A stretch of 64,000 bases of DNA. Origin: Leucoraja ocellata. Lineage: Eukaryota. The notes under the pieces were generated by a model. That model had not been told where the DNA came from, did no database searches, and saw nothing but the letters and a program-made list of their open reading frames with translations. A program made the position numbers and the translations under genes. The DNA lies in the NCBI GenBank assembly GCA_036785375.1, contig JAWMAR010000201.1:186001-250000 (forward strand), written 5' to 3'. Positions 2,082 through 55,240 of the stretch are shown here, piece by piece. Every line of letters starts with the position of its first letter. The stretch's first letter is position 1.

Positions 2082-2131
2082 TCATTCAGTCTTGTGAGGC
2101 CTGTCTGCAGTTCCACTGACAGGGTGGGCGC
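2082..2131 (-). CDS. Gene A exon 5, cytoplasmic tail [16 protein letters not shown]
   Basis: Branch-point-like cactgac, long pyrimidine tract and cacag acceptor. In-frame TGA at 2084-2082. Conserved in gene B. Confidence 0.75.
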
Positions 2132-5100
2132 CTGTGGGGAGAGAGATAGGAGAGAAGTCAGTGCACCCTACGAGAGTCCACATGAGATGAAGCACCTGTC
2201 CGTTTACCTTCACCCTCGCCTCTATCCAGTGACCTTAGCGTTCCTTCCAGCTGAGAAAGACGTTCACATGCACCTCCTCTAACCTCAATTACTACATCCA
2301 GTTTTCCCAACATGGCCTCCTGTACACTGGGCAGGCCAAGCACGGACTCATTGTCTGTTTCAACGAACAGTTACGGTTGGTCCGCCAATGCCAACTGTAT
2401 TTCCCATTTGCTATCATTTTAACTCCCCTCCCCATTCCCACACTTACTTTTCTGTCCTAGGCCTCATCCATTGTCAGAGTGAGGCCATACACTAAATGGA
2501 GGACCACCTCGTATTCCATGTGGATAGCTCAAAAAACCCAGCAAAATAAATATTAAATTCTCCAATTTTAGGTCACCACTTACTAATTATCCCCATCTGG
2601 CTTCACAATCTGGAGCTCTTAAACCTGTCTCTCACCTTCCTTTCTTATCTCTGGCCTCTGTTTTAACCATCTGCCTATCAACAACCACCCTCTCGAGAGA
2701 GAGATGTGTGCTGCTGTAAAACTGGATGCCGGGCATACCGAGACAAGTATTCTTTTTGTCCTCTCTTGCCAAAAAAACAAATTTGTAACTAAACAGATGT
2801 AACTAAAGCCTTTTTCTGTTCTACTAGTCGGATCCTTGAGCCTAAGGTGGACACAAAATGCTGGAGTAACTCAGCGGGACAGGCAGTATCTCTGGAGAGA
2901 AGGAATGGGTGATGTTTCCGGTCGAGACTCTTCTTCAGATTGCTGGCAGGGCAGTGGGCGGGACAGGGATAGAATGTAGTCGGAGACAGTAAGAGATGGG
3001 AGAACTGGGAAGGGAGCGGGGATAGAAAGATCGGGAAAGCAAGGGCTATTTGATGTCAATATTCATACCGCTGGGGTGTAAGCTACGCAAGCAAAATATG
3101 AGGTGCTGTTCCTCCAATTTGCGCTAATCACTCTAAGAATGTAGAAGGCACAGGACCGAAAAGTCAGATTGGGAATGGGAGGGTGAGTTAAACTGCTGAG
3201 GAACCGGGAGATCAGGTAGGTTAAGGCAACTGAACGGAGGTGTTCAGCGAAACGATCGCTGAGCCTGCGCTTGGTCTCACCAATGTACAGAAGTTGATAC
3301 CTGGAACAGCGGATACCATAGATGAGGTTGGAGGAGGTGCAAGTGAACCCCTGCCTCACCTGAAATGACTGTTGGGGTCCTTGGATGGAGTTGAAGGGGG
3401 AGGTATAGGGACAGGTGTTGCATCTCCTGCAGTTACAGGGGAAAGTACCTGGGGAGAAGGTGGTTTGAGTGGGAAGGGCTGAGTTGACTAGGGAGTTACG
3501 GAGGAAAGGGTGTCTGCAGAAAGCAGAAAGGGGTGGAGATGGGAAGATGTTGCCAGTAGTGGGATCCCGTTGGAGGTGGTGAAAGTGTTGGAGGATTATA
3601 TGTTGTATGCAACGGCTGGTGGGGTGCAAGGTGAGGCCAAGTGGGACTCTTTCCTTGTTGCGAATGGGGAGCAAGAGCAGAGCTGCGGGATATCGAGGAG
3701 ACCCTAGTGGGAGCCTCATCTATAATGGAAGAGTCAAAATTCCGTTTCCTATAGAATGAGGACATCTCCGATGATCATGGAAAGCCTAGTCCTGGGTGCA
3801 GATGCAGCATAGATGAAGGAATTGGGAGTAGATGACAGTCTTTTCAGGAAGCAGGGTGGGAAGAAGTGTAGTCTCGATATCTATGGGAGTCAGTAGGTTA
3901 GTAGTAGATGTCGGTCAATAGTCTGTCTCCTGTGATGGAGACGGTGATATTCAGAAACGGTAGGGAGAGTTCGGAGATGGTCCAAGCGAACCTGGTTCCT
4001 TGCTGCAGCTACTCCAGCACTTTGTGACCTTTTCTGAATTAAACAATGGCTGCAGTTCATTGTTTCTACATTTTAACTGCAAACACTTAAAAACAGCACT
4101 CACTGATGATGTGGGTGGCGACAGTGACTGAGATGAGAATCAGAAGCAGGACGGCTGTGACCGTGGCCCTCAACCAACATCCACGGAGACAGCTACTCAA
4201 CCCTGGTGAAAGAAGAGGGGATCACTCATCAGAGAGACTGCACTGGGCCTTGTTCACAAACTCAGCAAGAACTCTTGGCCCGCACTGTAGACTGACATCA
4301 AATAACTGTGACAGCGCTGTCCATTTACACACAGAGCATGGATAAAACACTGCTGCAGAGTGCCTTGTCAAGATCAATGGCTCTTTGTTGGCTCCCATTG
4401 TGTCCCTGGAGAGGGAACATGTGGTGTCCACGGGGACTCTGGTGGCCTTCCGTGAACAATGACCTTCCGCATCTTTACAATGAATGCATTGTAAAGATGC
4501 CATTAGTGTTTTATGATGATTGCCTGATGCAATGTGACTTGAACATTTTTGTACTTTCTGGTACACTGTAATATGCAATTACTGAATAAAGTCCTTGGAA
4601 GGGAAAACAAAACGTGAAGCTCCCTCTGCACTGTCTCAATGAACAATTAAACCACCACATTCTTCAAACATGATTCGCCCTCTGACACTCACCAGATGTG
4701 GTCTGTTTGCAGATGTCCTTCAACCGGATTTCTGCCGTGCCTTCACTGACCGGGTTCGTGGCCTCACACCTGTACACAACGTCCCCGACCTCTGCTGTGT
4801 GATGAACCTGTATTGTCTTTCCATGTCCCTCGACGTGATGGGTGCTGTCGTTTCCCACAGCTTCCCTCCACCACGTGAAGCTGGTGGAGTGGCCGGATGT
4901 CATGTAGCAGGTCAGGGTGAAGTCGCAGATCTCAGTGATGTTCTCGGCCTTGATCTGTGTTCCTGACACGGGCTCTGAGGTTGAGCAGAGGGAAGCAAGA
5001 CGAGTAAAGGAGATACTTGTAAACCCCTCGATACCCCATAACCCGTCTCCAAGAGCCACAAGCCATGAATGAGCCGATTCCAGCTCATTTCCACCCACCA

Positions 5101-11100: not shown

Positions 11101-14100
11101 CTCACCGTACACTTCCAGTCGGACTCTCGTCAAAGTTTCATCTCCTGAACTTGTAACAACAACCACCTCGTAAACACCAGCGTCCTTTCTCCGTAGATCA
11201 CGGATTTCCAGGCTGAAGTTCCCGCGGTGAAGAGTTACCCGTCCCATGTAATTGGCGTTCTTGTACTCAATATTCCCATTCCTGTGTACCGCTATCTTTA
11301 ATCTGGGTGATGTCCTCCTCCACACAACTTCCTCAACGTCCGATGTGACTGTGATGCCAACAGGTAAGGAGACCGAGTGTCCCCGAGCTCCGGTCACGGT
11401 GTCAGCGGCGGCCCCAGTCCCAGCTGAGGAGACAAGAGAGGCAGTCAGCAGGAGAGCTCAGAGACTGGAGGAGGAATCGGAGCTGGGAGAATCACAGATC
11501 ACAGGAGCAGGCCATGCGGCCCATCGTCTGGCTCCCGGCTCTGTTAGAGACCCGGCCCACATCTGTTTCCCTATACTCCCCAGAGCCCTACCATTCACGG
11601 TGTTTGCACTACTTTTTTTACTCCTCTCACAATGCATTGCATCATCTTTATTAGTGATACATCCATCTGTCATTGTTCCATCCATCCTATCAGCTCATCA
11701 ATATCATCCTGTAGTCTCCAGCTGTTGTCCTTTATGTCAACACAATAACCAATGTTTGTGTTATCTGTGAATTTATTAATCACACCTCCTACATTTACAT
11801 CCGTTACTAATGTGTCAATAGACTTTATGGGTCACAGCACTGATCTCTATGGGACATCGCTGATTGTAATCTCTCGATCACTGAAGCAGCCTTCCACCAT
11901 CATTCTGCTCCCTATTATCGAGCCAATTTTGCCAACTTGCTCTGGGTCCCATGGACCTTTAAAATTTGTCTAGTTTCCAATGTCCAAGGTCTTACAGGTA
12001 GGCCGGTGGATTATATGCCCTAATTAATATATATTGTCACCACTTCTTAATAGGTCACAGTGGATTGACCACAAATAAAACCAAGCTGACAATCTTTGAC
12101 GAAACCCAGCCTTTCAAAGTAATTAATCATGTCTTATTTTTTTCCAATAACTCCCCTACCTCTGATGTTAGGCCTGTAATTACTGGAGCATCCTCGATGT
12201 ACTTCACTCCTAAAGTTAAGGTTCACCATCAAGGACAAATGCGTATACCTTCACCAGGCACCCTGTGGCTGCGTACTAAAGACAGAGCCTGGCCACAAAA
12301 TGTGGCTTAAGCCCAAAGGCGTGCAGAATTCCAAAAAGATTTTTTGTTTTTTTAATTAAATATGTTATTTACAGCTTTATTATTAACATTATAACCTAAA
12401 CTATGAAAATGAAAAAAAGAAAAGAAAAAGAAAACAAGAAAGAAAAAAAATAGATAGTGAAAAGATAGATCGAAAAAGAACAAAAGAAAGTCCCCTAAAC
12501 TACCAAAGTAGTGTGGCAGAAAGATATAGAAATAAGAAAAAAGAAAGGTGGAGATATACCTTGCCCCTCGTCCCCCCCCCCCCCCCCCCCCCCCCCCACG
12601 CCCACCTCATCCAACCCAGCATCGGATTTAAATTTAAATTTGTGTTGCACCATGCTATTGTTGTAAGAATTCGGTAAAGGGTGTCCATGTCTTAAGAAAT
12701 TGATCTGTTTTTTCCGCCAAGACAAGCCTAATGTTTTCCAAATGTAGTGTCTCAGACATGTTTGTGAACCACATCTTCACTGTAGGGACTGTTGTGTCTG
12801 TTTCCAAAATTTAAGTATTAATTTTTTCGCCATTTTCAGACCATAGTTAAGGAAACGTCTTTGAAATATCGTTAGCTCAGACATACCTAGTGTGATCAAT
12901 TTTATGTTGTGATCCAATTTAGTTTAAAGTATTTTAGAAAATATATCAAAAATTCCCCTCCAGAAGTTTTGTAATTTTGTCCAGGAAACAAAAGAATGTG
13001 TTATGGTTGCTTCTTAGAGGAGACATTTATCACAGATAGGAGAGACATTTGGGAAGATCTTGTTCAACTTAGACTTTGAATAATAGAGTCTATGCAGTAT
13101 TTTAAATTGTACTAGTGAGTGCCTAACATTAAGAGAACAGTAATGCATACAGTGGCTTGCAAAAGTATTCATACCCCTTGAACTTTTCCACATTTTGTCA
13201 CGTTACAACCACAAACGTAAATGTATTTTATTGGGATTTTATGTGATAGACCAACACAAAGTGGTTCATAATTGTGAAGTGGAAGGAAAATGATACATGG
13301 TTTTCACATTTTTTTACAAATAAAAAACTGAAAAGTGTGGCATGCAAAAGTATTCAGCCCCCTTTACTCTGATACCCCTAAATAAGATGCAGTGCAACCA
13401 ATTGCTTTCAGAAGTCACCTAATTAGTAAATAGAGTCCACTTGTGTGCAATCTAATCTCAGTATAAATACAGCTGTTCTGTGAAGGCCTCAGAGGTTTGT
13501 TAGAAAACATTAGTGAACAAACAGCATCATGAAGCCCAAGGAACACACCAGACAGGTCAGGGATAAAGTTGTGGAGAAGTTTAAAGCAGGGTTAGGTTAT
13601 AAAAAAATATCCCAAGCTTTGAACATCTCACGGAGCACTGTTTAATCCATCATCTGAAAATGGAAAGAGTATGGCACAACTGCAAACCTACCAAGACATG
13701 GCCGTCCACCTAAACTGACAGGCCGGGCAAGGCGAGCATTGATCAGAGAAGCAGCCAAGAGGCCCATGGTAACTCTGGAGGAGCTGCAGAGATCCACAGC
13801 TCAGGTGGGAGAATCTGTCCACAGGACAACTATTAATCGTGCACTCCACAAATCGGGCCTTTATGGAAGAGTGGCAAGAAGAAAGCCATTGTTGAAAAAA
13901 AGCCATAAGAAGTCCCGTTTGCAGTTTGCCACAAGCAATGTGGGGGACACAGCAAACATGTGGAGGAAGGTGCTCTGGTCAGATGAGACCAAAATTGAAA
14001 TGTTTGGCCTAAATGCAAAACGCTATGTGTGACGGAAAACTAACACAGCACATCACCCTGAACACACCATCCCCACTGTGAAACATGGTGGTGGCAGCAT

Positions 14101-17100: not shown

Positions 17101-17976
17101 TGGCTAAAGGGATCAGGAGGTATGGAGAGAAAGCAGGTACAGGATACTGAATTGGATGATCAGCCGTGATCATATTGAATGGTGGTGCAGGCTCGAAGGG
17201 CCAAATGGCCTACTCCTGCACCTATTTTCTATGTTTCTACGTCACCAAATTCAAAGTTTTTTGCTTAGTGTATTGAAATAACTTAATAACTCTTGCAGAA
17301 AGAATTAGATTTAACTTGAATTTTAATACTGCTATCTTATTGTGTTTGTCAATAGAGGGATCGGTAGCATTTTCCAAATCAAACTGTCTAATCTGTTCCT
17401 CTAATTCCAATTGTTCCGACCGTTTTTTTTAATTTTGATACGCTTGATATGAGATAATAGAACCTCTGATAAAGGCCTTAAAAGATTCCCATAATAAAGA
17501 GGCCGAAATACCAGGTGTGTCATTTGTCTCATAAAATAGTTCCATCTGTTGCTTCAAATATTCACAGGGCAACTTCATTTATACATTTCAAATTTGTTGA
17601 TCCCACTCCCCCACGGTTTAATTTAAAGCCCTCTCTACAGCCCTGTTTAAGCAATTCCACAGGATCCTGGTCCCATCATGGTTCACATGCATTCCGTCCC
17701 ATGGGAACAGCTCCCTCCTTCCCCAATACTGATGCCAGTGTCTCACAAAGTGAAACCCAGTTCTCCCACACCAATCTTTCCCATCACGTACCATACCTGC
17801 CCGCACTTATGACAATAAACCCGGCTTGACTTGCTGAGAAGTTTCGAGTTTCCAGTCTGCAAAAGCAAAGCAGTCCCCAGAGGTTAAGTGAAATACAATA
17901 ACTAAATCAGAATAAACTCACGGATTGAGATGGGGAGAGATAGCCAGAAGCAGCTGAGCAGGCACCTGATGTCCAT
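2082..17976 (-). CDS. Gene A: CD2/SLAM-family receptor (SLAMF9/CD48/teleost CD2f-like), 5 exons, 267 aa
   Basis: Exons 17976-17922 (55 nt), 11423-11106 (318), 4974-4693 (282), 4202-4104 (99) and 2131-2082 (50) total 804 nt with no internal stop. All donors are GTGAGT, all acceptors are pyrimidine tract + CAG, and all introns are phase 1. The product is signal peptide, IgV without the B-F disulfide, IgC2 with 4 Cys, TM and a short tail, which is the CD2/SLAM layout. Confidence 0.88.
2845..3990 (-). mobile_element. Penelope-like element fragment (GIY-YIG endonuclease), gene A intron 4
   Basis: [11 protein letters not shown]...[36 protein letters not shown]. Confidence 0.88.
4104..4202 (-). CDS. 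Gene A exon 4, stalk and transmembrane segment ([33 protein letters not shown])
   Basis: 99-nt phase 1-1 exon with tcttctttcaccag acceptor and gtgagt donor. Hydrophobic helix, conserved in gene B. Confidence 0.85.
4350..4612 (+). mobile_element. Tx1-type LINE 3' end remnant
   Basis: Matches 41560-41770, the 3' end of the Tx1 element in gene B, and ends in AATAAA plus an A-rich tail. Confidence 0.7.
4693..4974 (-). CDS. Gene A exon 3, IgC2 domain
   Basis: EPVSGTQI...ICDFTLTC...FTWWR...[10 protein letters not shown]...DICK: EPV start, CxxxLxC, YxCxAxNPVS and terminal Cys typical of CD2-family membrane-proximal domains. Confidence 0.93.
5475..6000. repeat. Unclassified interspersed repeat with a (TAGAA)n end; relatives at ~28815-29400, 49410-49640 and 56200-56480
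   Basis: Absent from the gene B intron. Shares the aacatccaccacagtga...cctcactgtg motif with the other copies. Confidence 0.55.
6270..8650 (-). mobile_element. Old CR1 LINE fragment (duplicate at ~42895-44760)
   Basis: [61 protein letters not shown]. Confidence 0.88.
6941..7404 (-). mobile_element. 5' end of a THAP-domain DNA transposon, inserted in the CR1 of gene A only
   Basis: ORF 7262-7011 [12 protein letters not shown]...FRIPK...RVCSLHF is a THAP C2CH zinc finger. Absent from the paralogous CR1 at ~43575. Confidence 0.7.
9150..9345 (+). mobile_element. L2-type LINE 3' tail
   Basis: tgtaaaccactttgg...gtgctatagaaataaaagtgacttgact resembles L2 (Maui-like) 3' termini. Confidence 0.55.
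9409..10720 (-). pseudogene. ZFP36: ZFP36/tristetraprolin-family pseudogene fragment in gene A intron 2, split by a HER1 insertion
   Basis: 10460-10345 reads [33 protein letters not shown] (decayed tandem CCCH fingers). 9633-9409 ends [36 protein letters not shown] (TTP-family C-terminal NOT1-binding motif). The exact paralogue (ZFP36, L1 or L2) is uncertain. Confidence 0.85.
9642..10269 (+). mobile_element. HER1/CR1 LINE inserted into the ZFP36 fragment
   Basis: [34 protein letters not shown]...; flanked by a GAGTC direct repeat (putative TSD). Confidence 0.92.
10720..11075. repeat. C-rich tandem array of (CCCCC..CGGTCTCT)n
   Basis: About 15 irregular units of ggtctct followed by poly-C. 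G-rich on the transcribed strand. Confidence 0.85.
11106..11423 (-). CDS. Gene A exon 2, IgV domain
   Basis: [20 protein letters not shown]...EVVWRR...[27 protein letters not shown]...VRLEVY: C-strand Trp, SLxIxxLxxxDxGxY motif, no canonical Cys pair. Splice sites ctcctcag| and |gtgagt. Confidence 0.93.
13150..14595 (+). mobile_element. Tc1 (IR/DR-type, DD34E) transposon with inactive transposase 13529-14548
   Basis: TA|CAGTGGCTTGCAAAAGTATT left end and inner DR at ~13333. 340-codon frame with [31 protein letters not shown] and 4 in-frame stops. The right end keeps only the inner DR. Confidence 0.93.
16612..17240 (+). mobile_element. HER1/CR1 LINE 3' fragment
   Basis: [17 protein letters not shown] and the HER1 tail. 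Confidence 0.9.
17922..17976 (-). CDS. Gene A exon 1 (signal peptide [18 protein letters not shown])
   Basis: ATG at 17976, 18 mostly hydrophobic codons plus 1 nt, then a GTGAGT donor. Homologous exons lie at 50412-50358 and 62887-62833. Confidence 0.85.
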
Positions 17977-25285: not shown

Positions 25286-25413
25286 GTAATGTAAAGTTTA
25301 CAACTACATTGATCGCTGTCATTATGGTCATTGCCAGTTTGGGCCTTGTCATTGTGAACCGGATGAAATGCCATGGTGCCGCAGGAGTGCAGCAGGAGGG
25401 GACGTGCCAGCAG
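25286..25413 (+). pseudogene. Orphan transmembrane exon of a SLAM-type receptor
   Basis: ctcctctccatttag acceptor, GNVKFTTTLIAVIMVIASLGLVIVNRMK, then an AG|GCAAGT donor. Lies downstream of the inverted intron-2 homology (23130-23545). The frame does not join the next exon without a frameshift. Confidence 0.55.
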
Positions 25414-25919
25414 GCAAGTGCCTCACCCCGTGCCCAGAGCGCCAAGGTGTTCCCAGCCCATGGGAGGGGGTAGGGCAGGATTGGGGGGGTGAGGGGGGGG
25501 GGGGGTGTTCAAGATACAGGAAAGTGTCTCAGACATTCACTCTCTGGACTAACCCAGGAGTTGTGGTTGGGGATGGGTGGGAAACAAGATACAGGAATGT
25601 GTCTCACACACCCACCCTGAGAGGTCACAGGTTTGGACAGGTGGAAAAGGCGCTGGTGTTCGTTTGAGAGAGGCTGGAGATGACAGGAAGAGGGACAAAG
25701 ATCCAAGAAAGGCTGTGGAGGGGGGGGGGGGGGGGGGGAGAGAGTGGCGGGTTGGAGGAGGAGGCTGAGAGGTTAGAATGGGCAGACAGTTGGTGCAGCG
25801 GGCATGTCGGGAGGGCGACAGAGAGAGGGGTGATAAGGAAGGGTCTTGATGTGACTAGAGTGTGAAGGAGTTGCTGCATATTGTAAGCATAGCCTCATAC
25901 CTGTCCCTCTGCCCCACAG

Positions 25920-26062
25920 ACCCAGGGCCCACAGAGACAGAGACTATCTACACACAGGTCCAGCAACCACAGACATGCCCTGCAAAACTGCAGCCTCCGG
26001 AGGGAAACGAGACGGTAACGGGACACGTACTGAGCCATGGTGGAGGGGATCAGTGGGACTGA
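25920..26062 (+). pseudogene. Orphan cytoplasmic exon carrying an ITSM (TIYTQV)
   Basis: ctgtccctctgccccacag acceptor. The phase-1 frame DPGPTETETIYTQVQQPQ matches the SLAM ITSM consensus TxYxxV/I. Confidence 0.6.
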
Positions 26063-26127
26063 ACCCTCAATCCCAGGGACCATTCTTACCATCCCAGGGC
26101 AGGCAAGACACAGAGTTAAAAATGGCC

Positions 26128-26225
26128 ACACACCCAGTTACTGGGGTACACTGTTCCTCACACACCCAGTTACTGGGGTACACTGTTCCCCACATACCCA
26201 GTTAATGGGGTACACTTTCCCCGCA
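26128..26225. repeat. Minisatellite, about 32 bp x3
   Basis: acccagttactggggtacactgttcc repeated three times. Confidence 0.85.
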
Positions 26226-26239
26226 CTGTATGATACTGT

Positions 26240-27047
26240 TGTAACGACACCAAACGTGGTGAATAAACAGATGCTTTATTCAGGTGTTACATGCAGGTTT
26301 GGTCCACTAACATAATTGTCATTGATGCTGTAGCTGAGCGAGGGTGTTGTCTCGAGCTCAGCTACCTGTTGACAAGGTGAGATATGCTTATGTAGCAGGA
26401 CACACCACTTAGCCAATGGCGTCACGTGACGGCCTTCGTAACTACTGACGAGGGTTCGACCATAAGTGTTCTGTGTATCAGCTGACCTCTCAGCTCCGGT
26501 GGGCAGCAGCTGGTGGGGGAGTGGCAGCAGCCGCGGCCTCTCAGAATCAGAGGTTGGCTCCGTGCATATCATGCGGGAAAGCTTGGCAGCCGTCACACAA
26601 GGCCTGGAGCGCGCCCCTTGACCCGGGCGGCCTGCGGCATACCTTGGAGTAGGGCCAGGTTGGCGGCAGCGTCGTTCTGCAGGGGTGGGCTGTCGGCTGC
26701 AGACATCAGGTCTCCCGAGGCTGTGTGCGTCGGGAGAAATCCAAAATTCCAATTTGGATAGTCGGGGTCACCAATGTAGCGACACCAAATGTGGTGAATA
26801 AAAAGTTGCTTTATTCAGGTGTTACATGCAAATTTGTTCCACTAACATAATTGTCATTGCTGCTGTAGCTGAGCGAGGGTATTGTCTCAAGCTCAGCTAC
26901 CTGTTGACTGGGGTGATCTCAAGGTGAGATATGCTTATGTAGCAGGACATAAGCCTTAGCCCCTTAGCCCATGATGTCACGTGACAGCCTTCGTAACTAC
27001 TGACAAGGGTTCAACCATAAGTGGTCTGTGCATCAGCTGACGCCACA
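26240..27047 (-). mobile_element. Internally deleted LTR (Gypsy-type) element with two LTRs
   Basis: Direct repeats 26240-~26485 and 26775-27047 with TG..CA ends, CTGT TSD on both sides, and PBS TGGTGACCCCGAC (complementary to the tRNA-Trp 3' end) at 26773-26761. Confidence 0.85.
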
Positions 27048-27619
27048 CTGTCAACTTTCCTGGGACCTCAAGCAGTGGATCACTGGTCGCCCCTGGAAAG
27101 TCCCCGCACTGTGAGACAGGAGACATCCATCCTACACCCCAGCCCGTGATCCACTGATCTGTCTGAGGCAGCAGTCATACAGCACAGAAGACCCTTCGAC
27201 ACACCATGCACATGCTGACTATCAATTTACTACACATGGCTGTCTGTGCCTTGGTCATTCAAGTGCTCCATAAGGTGTGAGAGTCTCTGCATCCACCACC
27301 CTCTCATGCGGTATGGTCCAGTCTCCAACCACCCTCTGGGTGAAACAGTGTTTTCCTCAGATTGCTCTTATTCCTAACCTTATGTTCTCTCAGTGTGGAC
27401 ACATCTATTGTAGGGATAGGGAACAAACTGATGAATCTCTGCACTCTCACCAGTGCAATCACATCCCTCCTTTAGTGTGGTGCCCAGAACTATACATAAT
27501 ACTCCCGCTGTGGTCTAATCAAGATTTTATAAAGTTGTACCATAACCTCTCTGTTCTGTATTAAATGTCCCAGCTAATGAACCCCACACACAGGATGGTG
27601 TGTTGCCTCCCTGGTGCCT

Positions 27620-35848: not shown

Positions 35849-35898
35849 TCATTCAGTCTTGTGAGGCCTGTCTGCAGTTCCACTGACAGGGCGGGCGC
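35849..35898 (-). CDS. Gene B exon 5, tail [16 protein letters not shown]
   Basis: Same acceptor and stop as gene A. Candidate minus-strand AATAAA at 34972-34967. Confidence 0.75.
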
Positions 35899-38800
35899 CT
35901 GTGGGGAGAGAGATAGGAGAGAAGTCAGTGCACCCTACGAGAGTCCACATGAGATGAAACACCTGTCCGTTTACCTTCACCCTCTATCCAGTGACCCTAG
36001 CGTTCCTTCCAGCTGAGAAAGACGTTCACATGCACCTCCTCTAACCTCAATTACTACATCCAGTTTTCCCAATATAGCCTCCTGTACACTGGGCAGGTCA
36101 AGCATGGACTCTTTGGTTCAATGAACAGTTACGGTTGGTCCGCCAATGCCAACAGTATTTCCCATTTGCTATCATTTTAACTCATAACTGAATTCATATT
36201 ATCCAGCCCAACGGCTATACAGGAAGCAATGACGAAACAATTAAACTATAGGACATTCGGAAGAAGGTTGCAATCCATATGTTTCAAAACACGTGCCAGG
36301 TACTGGCAGCAACGTTTAATGACACAGCGATCACATAATCTCTGATGGTATTGATGACAACATTAAAGTTTGGGACCTCTGACAAAACAGGTTAATTTAT
36401 ACCATGCGTGGTCATACAGACTCAGTGACTGGTTTGACACTGAGTGAGGTAAAAGAGAACATCACCATCCTCGCTGACCACATCCTGGAAGCCATGGGGA
36501 AGGGTCGAAGAACAGTACCATGACTACAATCTCCCAGGAGGATGGTGGCCTTTCGGGATGTTTGGAGGCTGGTGGACAACAGTGGTGCACTGGGAACTGA
36601 CCATTGGGACAATCTTGTTGGCCATAATATTACAGCCTTCTATGTGCGGATTTGCATCACGACCATGTGGACTTTACTAAAGCCTGTGGGCCGGATGTGA
36701 TGAGGTAAAGCCTGTGGGCCGGATGTGACGGTAACCAGATTGTTCAAGGGATGGAATGTTATATGAGAAATTTTCAAGTTCATGTACGAGAGCGGTTCTC
36801 AGATGGGTTCAGACGTGATCAGCGCCGCAGATGGAGGCAGAGAGAGAGAGAGATGTGTGCTGCTGTAAAACTGGACCCTGGGCATACCGAGACAAGTATT
36901 CTTTTTGTCCTCTCTTGCCAAAAAAACAAATTTGTAACTAAACAGATGAGTGAGCCTTTTTCTGTTCTACTAGTCGGATCCTTGAGCCTAAGGTGGACAC
37001 AAAATGCTGGAGTAACTCAGCGGGACAGGCAGCATCTCTGGAGAGAAGGAATGGGTGATGTTTCCGGTCGAGACTCTTCTTCAGATTGCTGGCAGGGGAG
37101 TGGGCGGGACAGGGATAGAATGTAGTCGGAGACAGTAAGAGATGGGAGAACTGGGAAGGGAGCGGGGATAGAAAGATCGGGAAAGCAAGGGCTATTTGAT
37201 GTCAATATTCATACCGCTGGGATGTAAGCTACGCAAGCAAAATATGAGGTGCTGTTCCTCCAATTCGCGCTAGGACTCACTCTAAGAATAGAGAAGGCCC
37301 AGAACCGAAAGGTCAGATTGGGAATGGGAGGGTGAGTTAAACTGCTGAGCAACCGGGAGATCAGGCAGGTTAAGGCAACTGAAACGATCGCTGAGCCTGC
37401 GCTTGGTCTCACCGATGTACAGAAGTTGATACCTGGAACAGCGGATACCATAGATGAGGTTGGAGGAGGTGCTAGTGAACCTCTGCCTCACCTGAAAAGA
37501 CTGTTGGGGTCCTTGGATGGAGTCGAAGGGGGAGGTATAGGGACAGGTGTTGCATCTCCTGCAGTTTCAGGTGAAAGTACCTGGGGAGAAGGTGGTTTGA
37601 GTGGGAAGGGCCGAGTTGACTAGGGAGTTACGGAGGAAAGGGTGTCTGCAGAAAGCAGAAAGGGGTGGAGATGGGAAGATGTTGCCAGTAGTGGGGTGGT
37701 GAAAGGATTATATGTTGTATGCAGCGGCTGGTGGGGTGGAAGGTGAGGCCAAGTGGGACTCTTTCCTTGTTGCGAATGGGGAGCAAGAGCAGAGCTGCGG
37801 GATATCGAGGAGACCCTAGTGGGAGCCTCATCTATAATGATTGAGGAGAGCATCATCTATAATGGAAGAGTCGAAATTCCATTTCCTAAAGAATGAGGAC
37901 ATCTCCGATGATCATGGAAAGCCTCGTCCTGGGTGCAGATGCAGCATAGACGAAGGAATTGGGAGTAGATGACAGTCTTTACAGGAAGCAGGGTGGGAAG
38001 AAGTGTAGTCTAGATATCTATGGGAGTCAGTAGGTTAGTAGTAGATGTCAGTCAATAGTCTGTCTCCTGTGATGGAGACGGTGATATTCAGAAACGGTAG
38101 GGAGAGTTCGGAGATGGTCCAAGCGAACCTGTTTCCTTGCTGCAGCTACTCCAGCACTTTGTGACCTTTTCTGAATTAAACAATGGCTGCAGTTCATTGT
38201 TTCTACATTTTAACTGCAAACACTTAAAAACCGCACTCACTGATGATGTGGGTGGCGACCGTGACGGAGATGAGAATCAGAAGCAGGACGGCTGCGACCG
38301 TGGCCCTCAACCAACATCCACAGAGACAGCTACTCAACCCTGGTGAAAGAAGAGGGGATCACTCATCAGAGAGACTGCACTGGGCCTTGTTCACAAACTC
38401 AGCAAGAACTTGGGGCCCACATCGTAGACTGACTTCAAATAACTGCGACAGCGCTGTCCATTCACACACTCCCAGAACATGGACAGACACAGAGTGAAGC
38501 TCTCAAGGTCGGATACAGAGTGGCACTGCTCCGACAGCTGATAAGTTTATAAGTAACCCTTGAAAGGTTTTCGTTGAAGGAAGAGGGACAGAAATAGTGA
38601 GATTTCAAGGTTAGACATAACGTCGGACTGCAGGGACTTCTCTTTTCAAAGGATTTCTCCATTTAGTGAGGAATTCCAGCGCTTTTCTGGAGTTCCGTAG
38701 GAGCGGCAGTGGCTGGTGAATTACCAACTGTACCTGGAGACTGGGAGTCGGACAAAAGCGGTGTTTGTGGTTTCGAGCATCATAACTCTGCTCCCATACC

Positions 38801-41800: not shown

Positions 41801-44800
41801 CAATTAAACCACAACATTCTTCAAACCTGATTCGCCCTCTGACACTCACCAGATGTGGTCTGTTTGCAGATGTTCTTCAGCCGGATCTGTGCCGTGCCTT
41901 CACTGACCTGGTTCCTGGCCTCACACCTGTACACAACGTCCCCGACCTCTGCTGTGTGATGAACCTGTATTGTCTTTCCATGTCCCTCGAGGTGATGGGT
42001 GATGTTGTTTCCCGAAGCCTCCTTCCACCACGTGAAGTTGATGGGGCCACCAGAGGTCACGAAGCAGGTCAGGGTGAAGTTGCAGATCTCAGTGATGTTC
42101 TCAGCCTTGATCTGTGTTCCTGACACGGGCTCTGAGGTTGGGGCAGAGAGAAGAAAGATGAGTAAAGGAGATCCTTGTGGACCCCTCGATACCCCATAAC
42201 CCGTCTCCAACAGCCACGACCCACGAATGAGCCGATCACAGCTCATTTCCACCCACCAGTTTAACTCTTCCCTTCCCATTCAGTTCAGCCAGTTGTTGCT
42301 GGAGGAAGTCCACACGTGTGATGTGCCCCCTTCCCGAACACTCCCCGCACCCATCCACAAACTCTCCACTGTGTCCTGTTTATGGCTCTGTTCCCTGGGA
42401 ATCTCTCCAGTTCCATATCTTTTGTCACTTGTGAGTGGTCCCAGTGTTCCTTAAAAACTCGAGTGTGACCCAACTCAGACCGGCCCAGAACCTGGCCAAC
42501 AGTGGCAGCCCTGGGACTGTGATGGACACAGACCCAGACTGGGTAGCGTGCTGTGTTCCAGAGTGAATCCAGCACGTGCAGATCCTGGGCCACCTATTGT
42601 AGTAGGATCTTGATTAGTTGGGCAGGTGAGCTGACGAATGGTTAATGGAGTTCAGGTTTGGTCACCCTGCTACAGGAAGGATGTTGTTCGGCTGGAAAGA
42701 GTGCAGGGAAGATTTACAAGAATATGACCAGGACGTGAGGGCCAACGGTATAGGGAGAGTTTGGGCAGGCTAGGACTTTATTCATTGGAGCAGGAATATG
42801 ATCTGTATAATATACATCTTATAGAAGTTTAGTTTAGAGATACAGTGTAGAAACAGGCCCTTCAGCCCACCGAGTCCACACCGACCATCATGCACCTCCG
42901 ATTTCTCAATTCTCTCCCTATTTAGAAATTAGTCTACGCCTTTATTCCTACTACCAATATACTTGATTCCACACTTTGCTACACTATATTCCATCTGCCA
43001 CTTGTCTGCCCACAATCCTAAGTCCTTCTGCAGACTTCTTGTTTTCTTTGCACTACCTGCCCTTCCACCTATTTTCGTATCATCCGCAAACTTGGCCACA
43101 AAGCCTTCAATCCTCTCATCCAAATCATAAATATATATACAACTAGAAGAGTAGCGGCCTCAGCACCAACCCCTGTGGAACTCCACTAGTCACTGGCAGC
43201 CAACTAGAAAAAGCCCCCTTTTTTGCCGCTCTTTGTCTTCTGCCATCCAGCCAGCCTGCTATCCATGCACGTATCTGCCCTTTGATACTGTGGGCTCTCA
43301 TCTTTCTTATCAGCCTCACATGTGGCACCTTATCAAAGGCTTTCTGAACATCTAGGTAAACAACATGTACTGACTCTCCTTTGTCTGTCCTGCTATTTAT
43401 TTCTTCAAAGAATTCCAGCAAATCTGTCAAGCAAGACCTCCCCTTCACAAAGCCATGCTGACTTCGGCTTATTTTATCATGAACTAAGTACTCTGAACCT
43501 CATCATTTATAATAGACACTAAAATCTTACCAACCACCGGTCAGACTAACCAGCCTATAGATTCCACTATTCTGCTTTGCTCCCTTCTTGTGCAGCGGGG
43601 CATTTTTCCAATCATCTGGGACCTCTCCTGTCTCGAGTGATTCTTGAAATCTCACTGCCAATGCCTCCACAATCTCTAAAGCCACCTCTTTCGGAAGCCT
43701 ACGATACAGTCCATCTGGTCCAGACGATTTAACCACCTTCAGCCCTTTCAGCTTCCCAAGCACCTTCTCCCTACTAATAACCACTCCACTAACTTCTACC
43801 CCTTGACTTTCTTGATTTCAGGCACGTTGCTGGTGTCTTCCACTGTGAAGACTGATGCAAAAAGTTATTCAACTTCTCTGCCATTTCTTTATTCCCCATT
43901 ATCACTTCTCCTGCATCATTCTCCAGTGACCCAACTTCCACTCTTGCCTCTTTCTTACTCTTTATATAACTGAAGAAACTTTTGCTCTCCTCTTTTATAT
44001 AATTGGCTAGCTTATCTTTGTATTTCATCTTTTCTCCCCATATTGCCTTTTTAGTTCTTCTGTTGTTCTTTAAAAGCTTCCCAATCCCCCCACTAATATT
44101 TGCTATGTTATATCCCTCCTCTCTTAGTTTTATACTGTCCTTGATTTCCCTTGTCAGCCACAGTCACCTCTTTCACCCCCCAAGAACCTTTCTTCCTCTT
44201 TGGAATGAAAAGATCCCACATCTTCCGGATTATGCCCAGAAATTCCTGCCATTGGTGTTCCACTGTCACCCCTGCTAGGGTTTCTTTCCAGTGAACTTTG
44301 GCCAGCCCCTTCCTCATGCCTCTGTAGTCCCCGTTACTCAGCTGCAATACTGACACATCTGATTCTCCCTCTCAAATTGCAAATTGAAACTTATCATGAT
44401 GTGATTGTTACCTCCTAATGATTCCTTTACCTTGCGTTCCCTTATCAAATCCGGTTCATTACATAACACTAAATCCAGAATTGCCTTTTCCCTATTAGGC
44501 TCTAGTACAAGCTGCTCCAAGAATCCATCTCTGAGGAACTCTACAAATTCCAGTACCAACCTGGTTTTTACAGTCTATCTGCATATTGAAATCTCCCATG
44601 ACCACCGTTGCATTGTCTATTTTTGCATGCCAATTTTATCTCTTGATGTAACTTGTACCCTATATCCTGGCTAATGTTTGGGGTCCTGTAAATAACTAAC
44701 TAACAGAGCTACCCCACCCCCTCTGCCCACCTTTCTGTCTTTCCGATAGGACGTACACCCCTGAATACTTGAATGACCAAATGGCCTACCTACTCCTAGA

Positions 44801-47800
44801 AGTTATGAACATGATCAGCTGATGCCAAGTCGTAAAGACATGACAACATGTTCTCCAAAAGATAGAGGGGGGGGGGGGAGGGGGGGGGGAGGGGTTGATA
44901 TCTGATCACACCTCCACTAGAGGGCGCAGGTGGGGAGGAGGAGCTCATCAGGTATGAAGAGCAGGACGTTGTAAAATTATTAACCATCATATATATATGT
45001 TCAGAAGTTCATAAGCGATAGGAGCAGACTTAGGCCATTCGGCCCATTCCGCCATTCAAACATGGCTAATCTATATTTCCCTTTTAACGCCATTCTTCTG
45101 CATTCTCCCCCTAAATCCCGTTGGAACATTGTATGCCCAGTGGCAGGAAAACTTCACCAATCGCGACCTCCTCATTCGGGGCCAGGCACGATCTTCAGGG
45201 GGAACACAGGCTTTCCTGATATCTTGGAGGTCGCGACAATGGCTGAAGGGCCAACAACCCCAGCCATCACACAGTTATCTCTATTTATTCATGTCGGGAT
45301 GTACATACTCTTCAAACCATTCCTACAAGTTAACATCATGAAAGGTGTCGGGGACAGGAGTGGGTAAAATTGCAGTCACATTCGCGTAGCTGAGCCACCG
45401 TAAGCAGCACAGACAAGACATCACTTGCTGGAGAGCAGAGCACATGGGAGATTGATGGCAGTCAGTGGGGTTCAGTAAATTGGGGAATGCACAGGATCTG
45501 CCCCGCCTGTTAATTAGATGGGTTCAGGAGCTGGTGAAACCCGGGACCTTTGTGGCAGTCTCACTCACCGTACACCTCCAGTTGGACTGTTGCCGGAGTT
45601 TCCTTTCCTGAACTTGTTCCAAAAGTCACCTCATATTCACCAGCGTCCTCTCCCCGTAGATCACGGATTTCCAAACTGAAGTTCCTGCGGTGAAGAGTTA
45701 CCCGTCCCGTGTAATTGGTGTTAAAGTAATTCATCTTCCCATTCGAGCATTCCGCTATCTTGAATCTGGGCGATTTCCGCCTCCACGCCACTTCCGTAAT
45801 GTCCGGTGTGACTGTGATCCCAGCAGGTAAGGAGACCGAGTGCCCCCGAGCTCCGGTCACGGTGTCAGCGGCGGCCCCAGTCCCAGCTGAGGAGACAAGA
45901 GAGGCAGTCAGTAGGACAGCTCAGTGACTGGAGGAGGAATCGGAGCTGGGAGAATCACAGAGCACATGAGCAGGCCATGCGGCCCATCGTCTGGCTCCCG
46001 GCTCCGTGAGATACCCAGCCCACAGTCCCTGCATCAGTGAGCCCACGGAGGGAACAGGGTGCAGATTCTGTTGGTGATTGTAAACGGGCTCCTGAAAGCA
46101 CCCTTCACTTTTTTACAGCAAGGAAACAGACCCTTCGGTCCAACGAGTTCATGCCGTCCATCGATCAGTCATTCACACGAGTTCTATACAATCTCACTTG
46201 CTCATCCACTCCCCGAACATTAGGAGCAATTTTACAGAGGCCAATGAACGTACAAATCTGCACACCTTCAGGATGTGGATGGGCAGCGCCCTTCACTTTC
46301 AGACAGGAATACATCAAGGATGCCTACGTCCTACCAGCTGCATTCCCTTTGCCTGGAGCCATTTTTGTATCAGCAGAGGGAAAGGTTGTCATATTTACTT
46401 CTGCATGGGCTGGGCATAGGTGTCATTCTGCCATGTAATGCTATTGATGCGTTCAGGGCCTGATTACGTATAAGCTAGACAAGCTTAAACTTAGGGCCTC
46501 GAGAACTAGGGAGGCCTATTCACCTCACTGCCTCACCGGACCAGTCGAACCTCGCCGCCTCACTGACCATCCGCCCCCCGGAACCTCCTACTCTTTGCCC
46601 GCTGACCCTGGCCACTCCACCGCCCTCCAGCAGCCCGCAGCCGTCGCCTTACCTGCAGCCTGGACTCAGTGCCAGGCCTGAAGTACCACGCTGCAGACTC
46701 CCACTACCCTGGGTTTGACTGCGCTGGATCCTAGTGCTAGTCCCCCCAACCCTGGTAACCTCAGTGGCTGTTCCACTGGGTCTTCCCCATTCCCCTCAAA
46801 CCATGTGATCCCAGCTCTTCCCCACCCACACTGCATTCCTCATACCCCTCTACCCCCTGACCACCCACCACCCACCAGACATCGCCTCGGCCTCAGTCCA
46901 CTCACCTGCCTTCCGGCCCCAACCCCCATCCCTGCCGTGTGTTCACCATCCCCCTGACCTCCCCCTCTCTGATACTGAACGGTCTGTCCTCAGCAGAGGT
47001 CTCACCTTTGTACCCCTCCATCCCCACCTCAATGAGTTCCGCGCCCACCGCGATTTGGAGCATTGGAGCCCCCCATTGACGATCCCTTTTCCCGTCTCCA
47101 ACGGATCTCCTCCTCTTGGACCCTCCTCATCGCGATTGCTAAAATGAAATTTGGGGGTCAACATCCGACGTCAGAACGGGAGACCATTCACAGTGGCTTG
47201 GATTTCGGAATGGGCCACTTCCTACTAGAGACCGAAGTCTACAGGCAGAGCTGGGTGGAGATTTACGCTGGTGGCCCTCGGCAAAGGGTTCCCAGGGCTC
47301 CGTGATATTAAAATCAGTGCAGCCCGAGGCTGGGAGCTCTGCAAACCACAGCTCCATGATGTTGAAGCAGCAGGCCCAACACTCCAGAGCTTCAAACGGC
47401 GATCCAGGTAACGCATCGCTCGCTCTGTGGTGAATCCAATATGTATTTTAAAACTAACTGTTTAATGACAGCATACAGTAGGATCTAAAAGTGTCACTGT
47501 CACTGTCGGGTAGTCATGGTCCTCTAGTCGTGGGGGTGGGGGATTGGGAGGGGACTCACAAGTGAAATAGCTTAGGGCCTCTCTTCATCTAAATCCGGCC
47601 CTGGATGCGTTCCTCCTGTTGCCCTGTGAAATATGTGCTCGCCAGCAGGAATTCTGCTCCATGTATTCTTCAATGCTCAAATGTGATAAATTGAGACAGT
47701 GAGCCCACGATGAAAACAGAATGAAGACTCTGCACCCAGGGCTGAGGAAGGAAGTTACAGCCTGCAGCCCGATATCGATGCATGGGTCACGAGACACAGA

Positions 47801-50412
47801 CACGGCAAATGGGACCCAGTCCGGAGAAGGGTGCACATGGTGAATACAGAGTAAAAGAGAAGGGGTGGGCGGTGTGGGGAGCAGAAGGAACTAGGAGCGG
47901 GCACTTGGTGTGTAAAGATCCATGAAGATCGAGGTACAGTCCAATAGGCAGACGGGCTGCTTTCCTTTAGTCGAGGCTCAGAGACCGTGTAAGAACTGGA
48001 GATGGTGTAACTGTGCCCAACAGTAGTTAGACCCAGCCTGACCCTGCAGACAGTTCTGGGCACCACCACCCAGGAGAGACAGGTCACACTAGAGAAACTG
48101 CAGGGAGATTTACCAGGACGTTGCTGGGACTGGAACTGTCGCTGTGAGGAAAAACTAGAGACTGAGGTTGTTTGCCGTGGAACAGAGGTTGCTGAGGGGG
48201 ACGATCGAGGGGGTATGAAGTGATGAGGGACCTGAACAGAGTAAATGGGATGGTGCATTTCGCATAACAGAAGCGGAGAACAAGGCCAGACATTTACTGG
48301 CACTGGGACGGTTTAGAGGGGGGAGGATGGAAGGTGTGAACCCAGAGTTGTGTTTCCCTATAAGATAGACACAAAATGCTGGAGTAACAGCGGGACAGGC
48401 AGCATCTCTGGTTAGAAGGAATGGATGATGTTTCGGGTCATCTTTATCCGTAATACATTCCATCTGTCATTGTTCTGTCCATTTTAACAGCTCATCAATA
48501 TCATCCTGTAGTCTATAACTGTTGTCCTTTATGTCAACAAAATAGCCAATGTTTGTGTTATCTGTGTCAATAAACTTTATGGGTCACAGCACAGATCTCT
48601 ATGGGACATCGTTGGTTGTAATCTGTCGATCACTGAAGCAACCTTCCACCATCATTCTGCTTCCTATTATCGAGCCAATGTCAACTTGCTCTGGGTCCTG
48701 TGGATCTTTACCTTTTGTCTAGTCTCCAATGTCAAAGATCTTATAGGTATGCAGGTGGATTATATGCCCTAATTAATACATATTGTCACCACTTCCTAAT
48801 AGGTCACAGTGGAATAAAACCAAGCTGACAATCTTTGGCTAATCCTGGCCTTTCAAAGTGATTAATCATGTCTTATTTTCTTCCAATAACTCCCCTACCT
48901 CTGATGTTAGGGTTGTAATTACTGGAGCATCCTCAATGTACTTCACTCCTAAAGTGAAGGTACACCGTCAAGGACAAATACGTATACCTTCACCAGGCAT
49001 CCTGTGGCTATGTACTAAAGACCGAGGAGTCTGGCCACACAATGTCGCCTAAGCCCAATGGCGTGCAGGATTCCAAGAAGTTAGCTGGGATCTATTCTGT
49101 CAAACACCTTCTCCTAGTAGAGGGATGGAAAGGTAATGGGCAGACTTTTGGTTTTGGTTTCGGTTTATTATTGTCATGTGTACCTAGTACAATGAAAAGC
49201 TTTGTTTGATATACAAACTATACAGAAATACAACAAAGCCAAACACAAGTACAATAGGTCGAACAAAGCGACAGAAACAAAGTGCAAAATATATTTCTCA
49301 GCATTGTAGCACACCAGTTCCATATACAAAGTCCAATCACGGCCATGGGGTAGAGGTGAAAGGAGAGTTCCCTAGCTTATGGAAGGGTTCAGAAACTGTA
49401 AGGATCCATTTCAATTCAATTCAATTCAATATTTATTCCATCTCATTTGAACCTCAGTGAGGCTCAAACGAAATTCCGTTTCTACAGCCATACCAACAAA
49501 ACAATTCATACAAGACACACAAACAATTCAATTCACACAAACATCCATCAAGGTCTTTTCTCTCCTGTGCACCATTTTTCTCCTGATGTTGAGGCCCCAG
49601 GCGGGTGATGGTAAGTCCCACGGCCATTTAAGGTCACGCCGGGCGATGTACGGGTCTAAATGAGACTGATGCCAGCTTTCGAAGACAACATAGTGAGCTA
49701 CCAGTTCTGCCCACCTGCCTGTCTTTTCAATAGGGTGTGTATCCTTGGATGTTTAGCTCCCAGCTCTGACCCTCTTTCAACCACATGTCTGTGATGCCCA
49801 CAATGTCATAAATACCAATTTCTAATTATGCTGCTTGCTCATCGATCTTATATATACTGCGTGCATTCAAATAAGACCTTTGGTTCTGTGGTCACCACCC
49901 CTATTCTGACATTGGTCCTCATTTTGCCTGAACATGGACTCTTATCCCTTTATAAACTTTCTGTCCTGTTACTTGTTCTGGACGTCCTCTGAGTAGCCTC
50001 TCTTGGGCCCTCCTGGGCAACTTCATTTATACATTTCAAATTTGTTGAGCCCACTCCCCCAGTTTAGTTTAAAGCCCTCTCTACAGCCCTGTTTAAGCAG
50101 TTCCACAGGATCCTGGTCTCATCATAGTTCACGTGGATTCCATCCCATGGGAACAGCTCCCTCCTTCCCCAATACTGATGCCAGTGAAACCCAATTCTCC
50201 CACCCCAATCTTTCGCACCACGTACCATACCTGCCCATACCTATGACAATAAACCGGGCTTGACTTGCAGAGAAGTTTCGAGTTTCCAGTCTGCAAAACC
50301 AAAAGCAGTCCCCAGAGGGGGAAGTGAACCACAATAAGTAATTCAGAATAAACTCACGGATTGAGACGGAGAGAGACAGCCAGAAGCAGCTGAGCAGGCA
50401 CCTGATATCCAT
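35849..50412 (-). CDS. Gene B: CD2/SLAM-family receptor, paralogue of gene A, 5 exons, 267 aa
   Basis: Exons 50412-50358, 45886-45569, 42131-41850, 38339-38241 and 35898-35849 have the same lengths and phases as gene A, canonical splice sites and an open frame. Confidence 0.88.
36190..36448 (+). pseudogene. SNRNP40: SNRNP40 (U5-40K WD40 protein) pseudogene fragment in gene B intron 4
   Basis: Reads NSYYPAQR..TGSNDETIKL*DIRKKVAIHMFQNTCQVLAATFNDT/SDHIISDGIDDNIKVWDL*QNRLIYTMRGHTDSVTGLTLS, matching SNRNP40 NSCYPARR..TGSDDGTVKLWDIRKKAAIQTFQNTYQVLAVTFNDTSDQIISGGIDNDIKVWDLRQNKLTYTMRGHADSVTGLSLS as recalled. Contains stops and a frameshift. Confidence 0.88.
36990..38130 (-). mobile_element. Penelope-like element fragment (duplicate), gene B intron 4
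   Basis: Near-identical to 2845-3990; [22 protein letters not shown]. Confidence 0.88.
38241..38339 (-). CDS. Gene B exon 4, TM ([33 protein letters not shown])
   Basis: 99-nt exon with canonical splice sites, 2 aa different from gene A. Confidence 0.85.
39100..41770 (+). mobile_element. Tx1-type LINE ORF2 remnant, gene B intron 3
   Basis: GKAPGLDGLTIEF, KNWCPVSLL, SLDQEKAFDRVDH, GVRQGCPMSG, AYADN, CNFCGKNEAVYH. Confidence 0.88.
41850..42131 (-). CDS. Gene B exon 3, IgC2 domain
   Basis: [23 protein letters not shown]...YRCEARNQVS...NICKQTTS; 282 nt. Confidence 0.93.
45569..45886 (-). CDS. Gene B exon 2, IgV domain
   Basis: ...[72 protein letters not shown]...VQLEVY; 318 nt with canonical sites. 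Confidence 0.93.
46450..47130 (+). mobile_element. Penelope 5' ORF fragment, gene B intron 1
   Basis: DLPLSDTERSVLSRGLTFVP..PHLNEFRAHRDLE, a Penelope RT N-terminal motif. Confidence 0.7.
50358..50412 (-). CDS. Gene B exon 1 (signal peptide [18 protein letters not shown])
   Basis: ATG at 50412, 55 nt, GTGAGT donor. Confidence 0.85.
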
Positions 50413-54955: not shown

Positions 54956-55240
54956 AGCCCATGGCAGGAACACCGACCAGGCCTCAGAACATCGCCGAAA
55001 TTTGCAACTTCACCCTGACCTGCTGCATGACCTCCGGCAACCCCACCAGCATCAGGTGGTGAGGAGAGGAGAAGCTCTGGAAAATGACAGCACCCATCAC
55101 CCCCGTGGACATGGAGTGATGGCAGAGGGTCATCACACAGCAGAGGTCGGGGACATTGCGTACAGGTGCGAGGCCAGGAACCAACACTTGGCCGATGTTG
55201 GTAATTTCCACCTCCAGCTCCAGACAGTCTGTGGCTCGGG
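54956..55240 (+). pseudogene. Inverted IgC2 pseudo-exon of a CD2/SLAM paralogue
   Basis: EPMAGT...NIAEICNFTLTCCMTSGNPTSIRW* / ...ENDSTHH...[18 protein letters not shown]. Acceptor cctcag is mutated to cctcat and there is a 1-nt frameshift. It is preceded by an inverted copy of the intron-2 3' segment (54550-54955). Confidence 0.85.

Follow-up and report, generated by a model that had tools for sequence, protein, structure and literature searches.

Short-tailed CD2/SLAM-type receptor genes with a conserved Cys/basic/His transmembrane segment in the skate Leucoraja ocellata: candidate activating partners of ITSM-bearing paralogs

In the skate Leucoraja ocellata, genes A and B appear to encode the short-tailed side of a family of paired CD2/SLAM receptors in sharks and rays, and it is plausible that they give the "on" signal of an on/off pair by way of a borrowed helper chain. 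No living lineage with adaptive immunity is older than the cartilaginous fish, whose activating innate receptors are poorly characterized; the locus gives a candidate pair, a short-tailed Cys/basic/His chain and, across many species, ITSM partners whose ectodomains match it. It bears on which ITAM adaptor serves where FcR-gamma is reported absent and on whether tail-less amniote SLAM members signal via a common transmembrane (TM) module. The concept of adaptor-coupled CD2/SLAM receptors is already known from Xenopus, which limits the surprise. Coordinates below refer to the window, the whole 64,000-nucleotide stretch analyzed (GenBank assembly GCA_036785375.1, contig JAWMAR010000201.1, positions 186,001 to 250,000 of the forward strand), in which the following features were placed.

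17922..17976, minus strand: gene A leader (signal peptide) exon; start resembles P0007, joined frame open.
11106..11423, minus strand: gene A V-set exon, Cys-free (Pfam V-set, E = 3.5e-13).
4693..4974, minus strand: gene A C2-type Ig exon with four Cys (141, 147, 194, and 213) (Pfam Ig_3, E = 2.7e-5).
4104..4202, minus strand: gene A TM exon with Cys223, Cys227, Arg230, an 18-residue core, and His249 (splice sites, RefSeq models).
2082..2131, minus strand: gene A tail exon and stop, without Tyr, C-terminus H-K-x-E (contig X1#1 start at 2130).
50358..50412, minus strand: gene B leader exon.
45569..45886, minus strand: gene B V exon; over V+C2, identity to P0005, a skate transcript with an ITSM, is 91%.
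41850..42131, minus strand: gene B C2 exon.
38241..38339, minus strand: gene B TM exon with three stalk Cys.
35849..35898, minus strand: gene B tail exon and stop.
25286..27154, plus strand: broken ITSM-type partner gene, inverted, between A and B (tblastn with P0005/P0006, three-frame reading).
About 25286-25413, plus strand: uncharged TM exon of this relic, frameshifted.
About 25920-26014, plus strand: ITSM exon of the relic, which looks intact.
About 27047-27154, plus strand: last exon of the relic.

The feature at 4104-4202 is genuine, and the models of both genes are sound. Exon order is leader, V, C2, TM, and tail in each (B spans 50412-35849), and both joined reading frames are open, with 267 residues each. 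The gene A TM exon (99 nt; window 4202-4104, minus strand) has a cag acceptor and a gtgagt donor in phase 1/1. The original prediction of an outer Arg, an inner His, two (A) or three (B) stalk Cys, and a short Tyr-free tail was confirmed on the exon sequences: the Arg230 codon (4170-4168) and the His249 codon (4113-4111) are separated by 18 uncharged residues, the extracellular stalk holds Cys223 and Cys227 in A, to which B adds Cys225 where A carries Arg, and 16 residues with no Tyr follow the helix in both. The TM exon and tail of A recur in the RefSeq models P0001 and P0003 (Amblyraja) and P0008 (Rhinoraja), all of which end in the same Tyr-free tail with no added Tyr-motif exon. Among named proteins, two skates, Amblyraja radiata and Rhinoraja longicauda, supply the nearest matches (C2 identity up to 91%); searches of Pfam and PDB with the TM exon gave no match. 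An alternative frame over the tail exon (1853-2167), with three Tyr, was rejected: it needs a phase-0 join, holds no YxxL/I/V, and has A/B differences that are mainly replacements.

Only 4 of 24 sequencing runs were aligned to the window, with output mostly from intronic repeats. In run X1, for which the RNA label is a guess, a 308-nt contig (depth, 3.84) aligns to 2130-1900 from its letter 55; it could derive from A, B, or an ortholog, possibly of another skate. Bin 4126-4231 has a depth of 1.12, equal to 3.84 × 31/106, which fits the contig's first 53 letters on 4156-4104. From this depth arithmetic we infer the TM-to-tail splice; the joint is absent among the 15 listed, 387 further ones being unlisted. 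Contig X1#8 aligns to 4855-4975 in the gene A C2 exon. Three bulk RNA runs gave next to no coverage of the TM and C2 exons (depth, 0-1.5), which counts against the reading favored below.

From sequence features, A and B are classed as CD2/SLAM-type receptors, exact orthology aside. The gene A V exon matched Pfam 2B4 (E = 7e-4, under the model cut-off), and neither V domain has the canonical disulfide Cys pair (A has no Cys, B one). The C2 domain that follows carries Cys141, 147, 194, and 213 in both proteins; four Cys, giving a second disulfide, are a feature of CD2/SLAM C2 domains. Among solved ectodomains the matches were CEA (5.7e-16) and SLAMF6 (5.1e-15), then CD48, a CD48/CD2 chimera, CEACAM1, and CD2, and RefSeq names of the relatives are mainly SLAM/Ly-9/CD48-like. 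The single Cys of the gene B V domain (45570-45884, minus strand), residue 65, is unpaired and common to transcript P0005.

The TM segment defines a class that extends well beyond the two genes. A profile search returned 91 proteins, 16 of them with C-x-x-[RK]-x18-[HQ]. Circularity was avoided by reselecting the class on positions other than Cys, Arg/Lys, and His, with proteins of up to 700 aa; the reselected class (17 of 115 retrieved proteins) has the Cys in 17/17, Arg/Lys in 17/17, and His in 16/17. Conservation had been claimed from A and B themselves, which do agree; that agreement is weak evidence because the TM exons are recent duplicates with 96% DNA identity, and the wider class is what bears the claim out. 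Replacement changes between A and B cluster in V (pN, 0.157; pS, 0.150), not in TM (pN, 0.028; pS, 0.078), all from small counts. Class members span 12 named species of skates, sawfish, stingrays, mantas, and sharks, with Arg as the basic residue in batoids and Heptranchias and Lys in other sharks (7/16). The class TM was not seen among the retrieved Hypanus, Narcine, Chiloscyllium, Hemiscyllium, Stegostoma, and Rhincodon proteins, a sample uninformative on absence. A word search with the TM-tail region gave only 2 proteins among 19 candidates, and open-access text yielded no description of this TM class or of shark/ray pairing, nor anything on an NxxR TM in sharks or an ITSM SLAM family in cartilaginous fish.

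Class members differ from the other TM-bearing relatives (P0001-P0080) in more than the helix: ITSMs occur in 0/16 versus 25/51, the median tail is 16 versus 82 residues, and a stalk Cys (within 12 residues before the TM core) is present in 16/16 versus 4/51. A tail Tyr occurs in three of the shark members, in no case within YxxL/I/V. The batoid tails end in H-K-x-E (10/10), with Lys third from the end, which recalls dilysine-type ER retrieval signals; such signals can be masked by adaptor assembly. The longer-tailed shark members (P0029, P0033, P0041, P0046, P0047, P0049, and P0235) end in E-[LV]-D-[GA], and the very short shark tails of P0021 and P0038 may be alternative models, the majority of homologs being predicted gene models.

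The ectodomains do not follow the TM class. On a V+C2 tree (quick method; 60 rows, 18 of them class), the class label needed 15 changes for 18 rows, 12 of them forced by strongly supported branches, and shuffles went as low as 15 changes in 215/500, so the class is scattered. For 10 of the 18 class rows, a non-class paralog of the same species (80-94% identity) was nearer than any other species' class member, and the non-class partners in these close pairs are ITSM-bearing or neutral-TM; the nearest ectodomain to gene B, at 91%, is that of an ITSM-bearing skate transcript. Exceptions were ortholog or congener pairs (gene A/P0003, two Mobula) and the distant rows P0010, P0049, and P0172. Gene conversion between paired receptors would be expected to leave such a trace, an ancient TM module joined to ectodomains peculiar to each species.

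KIR, LILR, and PILR are paired families with near-identical ectodomains and opposite TM/tail modules. The skate family is like them in that near-identical ectodomains are joined to contrasting TM/tail modules within one genome; unlike theirs, its long-tailed partner has ITSMs rather than ITIMs, and opposite signaling is putative here. The relic between A and B was found at tblastn E-values of about 1e-9 to 1e-10 (queries P0005/P0006), with no V or C2 exon detected upstream on the plus strand. A third gene, C (62887-58335, minus strand), has a leader and an intact V exon, the latter 87% identical to the V of the class member P0010 (Rhinoraja); its nearest C2 exon (54958-55232, plus strand) is inverted and frameshifted. 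A figure of the white shark MHC region shows slamf genes (PMC10751288).

The reading we favor, tentatively and at somewhat less than an even chance, is that A and B are the activating arm of the paired CD2/SLAM family, coupled to a zeta/gamma-type adaptor and probably disulfide-linked. Ectodomain exons would be repeatedly homogenized between both types by gene conversion or exon exchange, giving the two arms similar ligands; the outer-end Arg/Lys would pair with the two Asp residues of an ITAM dimer of the zeta/gamma type, as in CD89; and ligand binding would produce an ITAM signal opposing or tuning the ITSM partners. Three positions ahead of the basic residue, the invariant Cys would supply an interchain disulfide. 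The inner-end His caps the clean hydrophobic run at 18 residues and may pull Arg into the bilayer or flag the unassembled chain for retention; its originally suggested role as a second adaptor contact found no precedent in the accessible portions of the literature.

CD3-zeta is present in sharks. The original prediction had assumed an elasmobranch FcR-gamma, which accessible sections of two sources report as absent from cartilaginous fish in 2014-era assemblies (PMC4016189, PMC5742104); because of this reported loss, CD3-zeta would be the natural partner, and the adaptor proposed here, if that absence holds. The elephant shark genome supplement file contains no adaptor entries, and open-access text gave nothing relevant on shark FCER1G/CD247. 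In the accessible part of one source, CD89 binds FcR-gamma via an Arg high in its TM, and zeta or gamma use is assumed for NKp30 and NKp46, with their upper-TM Arg (PMC13107469); coupling of A and B is a candidate only. The skate chains resemble these three receptors in having a basic residue near the TM top, one turn below a conserved residue, and in needing no Tyr motif of their own; the three differ in lacking CD2/SLAM ectodomains, and CD89 has a polar Gln/Asn above its Arg.

Disulfide-linked dimers, as originally proposed, are favored by an odd number of stalk Cys in 12/16 class members (a single Cys in 3, all sharks), and less so by gene A, where the two could pair internally. The four C2 Cys presumably pair with each other, and an odd stalk count suggests that the invariant Cys is probably bonded to another chain. 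A predicted homodimer of the P0003 stalk, TM, and tail scored 0.02 with the alignment unused and has no weight either way.

The chief rival, which we hold to be rather unlikely yet serious, is an adaptor-independent ligand or decoy arm: disulfide-linked dimers would reach the surface alone and bind or compete with ITSM paralogs, with Arg as a headgroup anchor and Cys, His, and Ser serving packing or trafficking. CD48 and CD58 serve in this way as ligands for 2B4 and CD2, and common ectodomains suit a ligand or decoy role as well. The position of Arg230, at the outer TM boundary, is central to the choice. The basic residue is followed by 22-29 uncharged ones (median, 22.5), a stretch that could cross the membrane alone, and a basic residue is the first outer charge in 31/50 other family TMs too. 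On a crude hydrophobicity scale, the best 21-residue window starts after Arg (-1.40 versus -1.04 with Arg two inside), windows with and without Arg being about 0.4 apart. Conserved positions show no significant bias toward one face of the helix (P = 0.18), and the features of NxxR helices are missing. Lys/Arg exchange, as seen here between sharks and rays, impairs assembly of the TCR type (accessible part of PMC13107469), which counts against adaptor coupling. Arg230 may only flank the helix. Against a ligand or decoy role, a charge that did no more than flank the helix would be unlikely to stay fixed in 17/17 ray and shark proteins next to an unvarying Cys, and a median of 2 basic residues follows the helix versus 4 in paralogs; the residue just before the basic one is hydrophobic in 16/16 class members versus 7/50 other members. 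The original proposal is partly supported: near-identical ITSM partners and the Xenopus precedent speak for it, and a flanking Arg would speak against adaptor dependence.

Mammalian SLAMF8 and SLAMF9 offer a parallel to the ligand or decoy role, having no ITSM and, in the accessible part of the source, no described adaptor (PMC6145869). They are like A and B in their V+C2 ectodomains, short ITSM-free tails, and signaling route, undescribed in the sections available (PMC6963180, PMC6145869, PMC7078004); they differ in Lys/Arg-rich tails and in that those sections describe no near-identical ITSM partner.

It is improbable that the helix instead binds a partner other than an ITAM adaptor (an ITSM paralog or other membrane protein) in a Cys-linked heterodimer in which the partner's tail signals. 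An unpaired extracellular Cys in 12/16, invariant Leu+8, Leu+11, Ile+21, and Ser+22 (partly by selection), and one cluster holding both gene types are consistent with such a pairing; ITSM members offer no matching thiol, however, because only 4/51 paralogs carry the pre-TM Cys.

Coupling to DAP12 or DAP10, part of the original prediction, did not hold up and is very improbable. Lys occurs in 7/16 class members, all sharks, and NKG2D is a dimer whose Arg binds DAP10, yet DAP12 needs a central Lys and DAP10 a central Arg (NKG2D and both requirements from the accessible part of PMC13107469). Positions +1 to +18 are uncharged in 16/16 class members.

Also very improbable is a role of A and B as GPI-anchored ligands like CD48, with the C-terminal segment as the attachment signal: Ser, Cys, or Gly lies 4-9 places before Arg, and the helix lies near the protein's end with little basic sequence behind it, but instead of a hydrophobic C-terminus with no cytoplasmic tail there is a conserved hydrophilic tail of 16 residues on its own exon, ending in H-K-x-E in all 10 batoids and longer in most sharks, and GPI signals are usually degenerate.

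Three SLAM-like proteins outside the class, P0076 and P0080 (Scyliorhinus) and P0103 (Mobula), have Arg/Lys after four to five hydrophobic residues. Because hydrophobic residues precede it, their basic residue is more clearly within the TM, and they are perhaps a second, better class of adaptor-coupled candidates.

The adaptor-coupled reading of A and B has its closest precedent in Xenopus, where, in the accessible parts of the sources, CD2/SLAM members carry an FcR-gamma-type NxxR TM (PMC4536121, PMC6557307) and XFL receptors with an NxxR TM associate with FcR-gamma (PMC2413239). Like the skate family, both Xenopus families are expanded and comprise long members with Tyr motifs and short-tailed members with an outer basic TM residue; in XFL, genes of the two kinds are interspersed along the genome (PMC2413239). 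Hallmarks of the NxxR TM are Asn three residues before Arg, an N-terminal DYT, and an acidic C-end (PMC6557307). The shark/ray class shares with NxxR receptors a very short tail free of Tyr motifs and a basic residue toward the outer side of the TM. Unlike them, it has Cys for Asn three residues before the basic residue (17/17), no DYT, His (+19) rather than an acidic residue at the inner end, and either Arg or Lys in place of Arg. TM and tail share one exon in XFL TM1 genes, unlike the separate skate exons at 4202-4104 and 2131-2082 (PMC2413239). With its hallmarks absent, we do not place A and B in the NxxR group. P0183, a multi-Ig CD2-like protein of the teleost Prochilodus, is nearer the NxxR type, with an outer Arg in its TM and an Asp-His pair toward the inner side.

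Outside cartilaginous fish, P0172 (Trachemys) and P0152 have identical Cys/basic/His spacing, and in both Leu occupies +8 and +11 and the tail is 9 residues long; P0152 has a stretch in common with a Pelodiscus entry. With a PSSM from the shark/ray segments, P0172 and P0152 ranked first and second among 110 outside TMs, and zone-preserving shuffles matched their scores in 0 and 35 of 20,000, respectively. An HMM from 16 TM segments gave P0172 a nonsignificant E-value of 0.62 (234 proteins) and left P0152 outside the top 30, and the case for homology therefore rests on the PSSM test; homology of the turtle TMs to the shark/ray class is likely, not firm. In the ESM Atlas, the skate segment (0.76) and the turtle segment (0.91) both point to one chordate cluster, which is no more than a lead. 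The SLAMF9 TM may also resemble the class. A broader version, which we consider decidedly unlikely, would make the module an activating one dating from the first jawed vertebrates, present in sharks, rays, and turtles (perhaps also SLAMF9), with ITSM-homogenized ectodomains and coupling to CD3-zeta, possibly via Cys. If true, it would show innate paired receptor signaling before FcR-gamma and suggest a testable adaptor for orphan short-tailed SLAMs.

The locus also carries what appear to be mobile elements. An insert of ~3 kb (about 38483-41556) in the C2-TM intron of gene B, missing from A, contains retrotransposon-like ORF fragments. A 550-codon open frame at 30343-31995 (plus strand) reads like a LINE reverse transcriptase, by our assumption, and we take many fragments elsewhere in the window to be CR1-like. 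At 13658-14548 (plus strand), the leader-V intron of gene A presumably holds a fragmented Tc1/mariner-like transposase.
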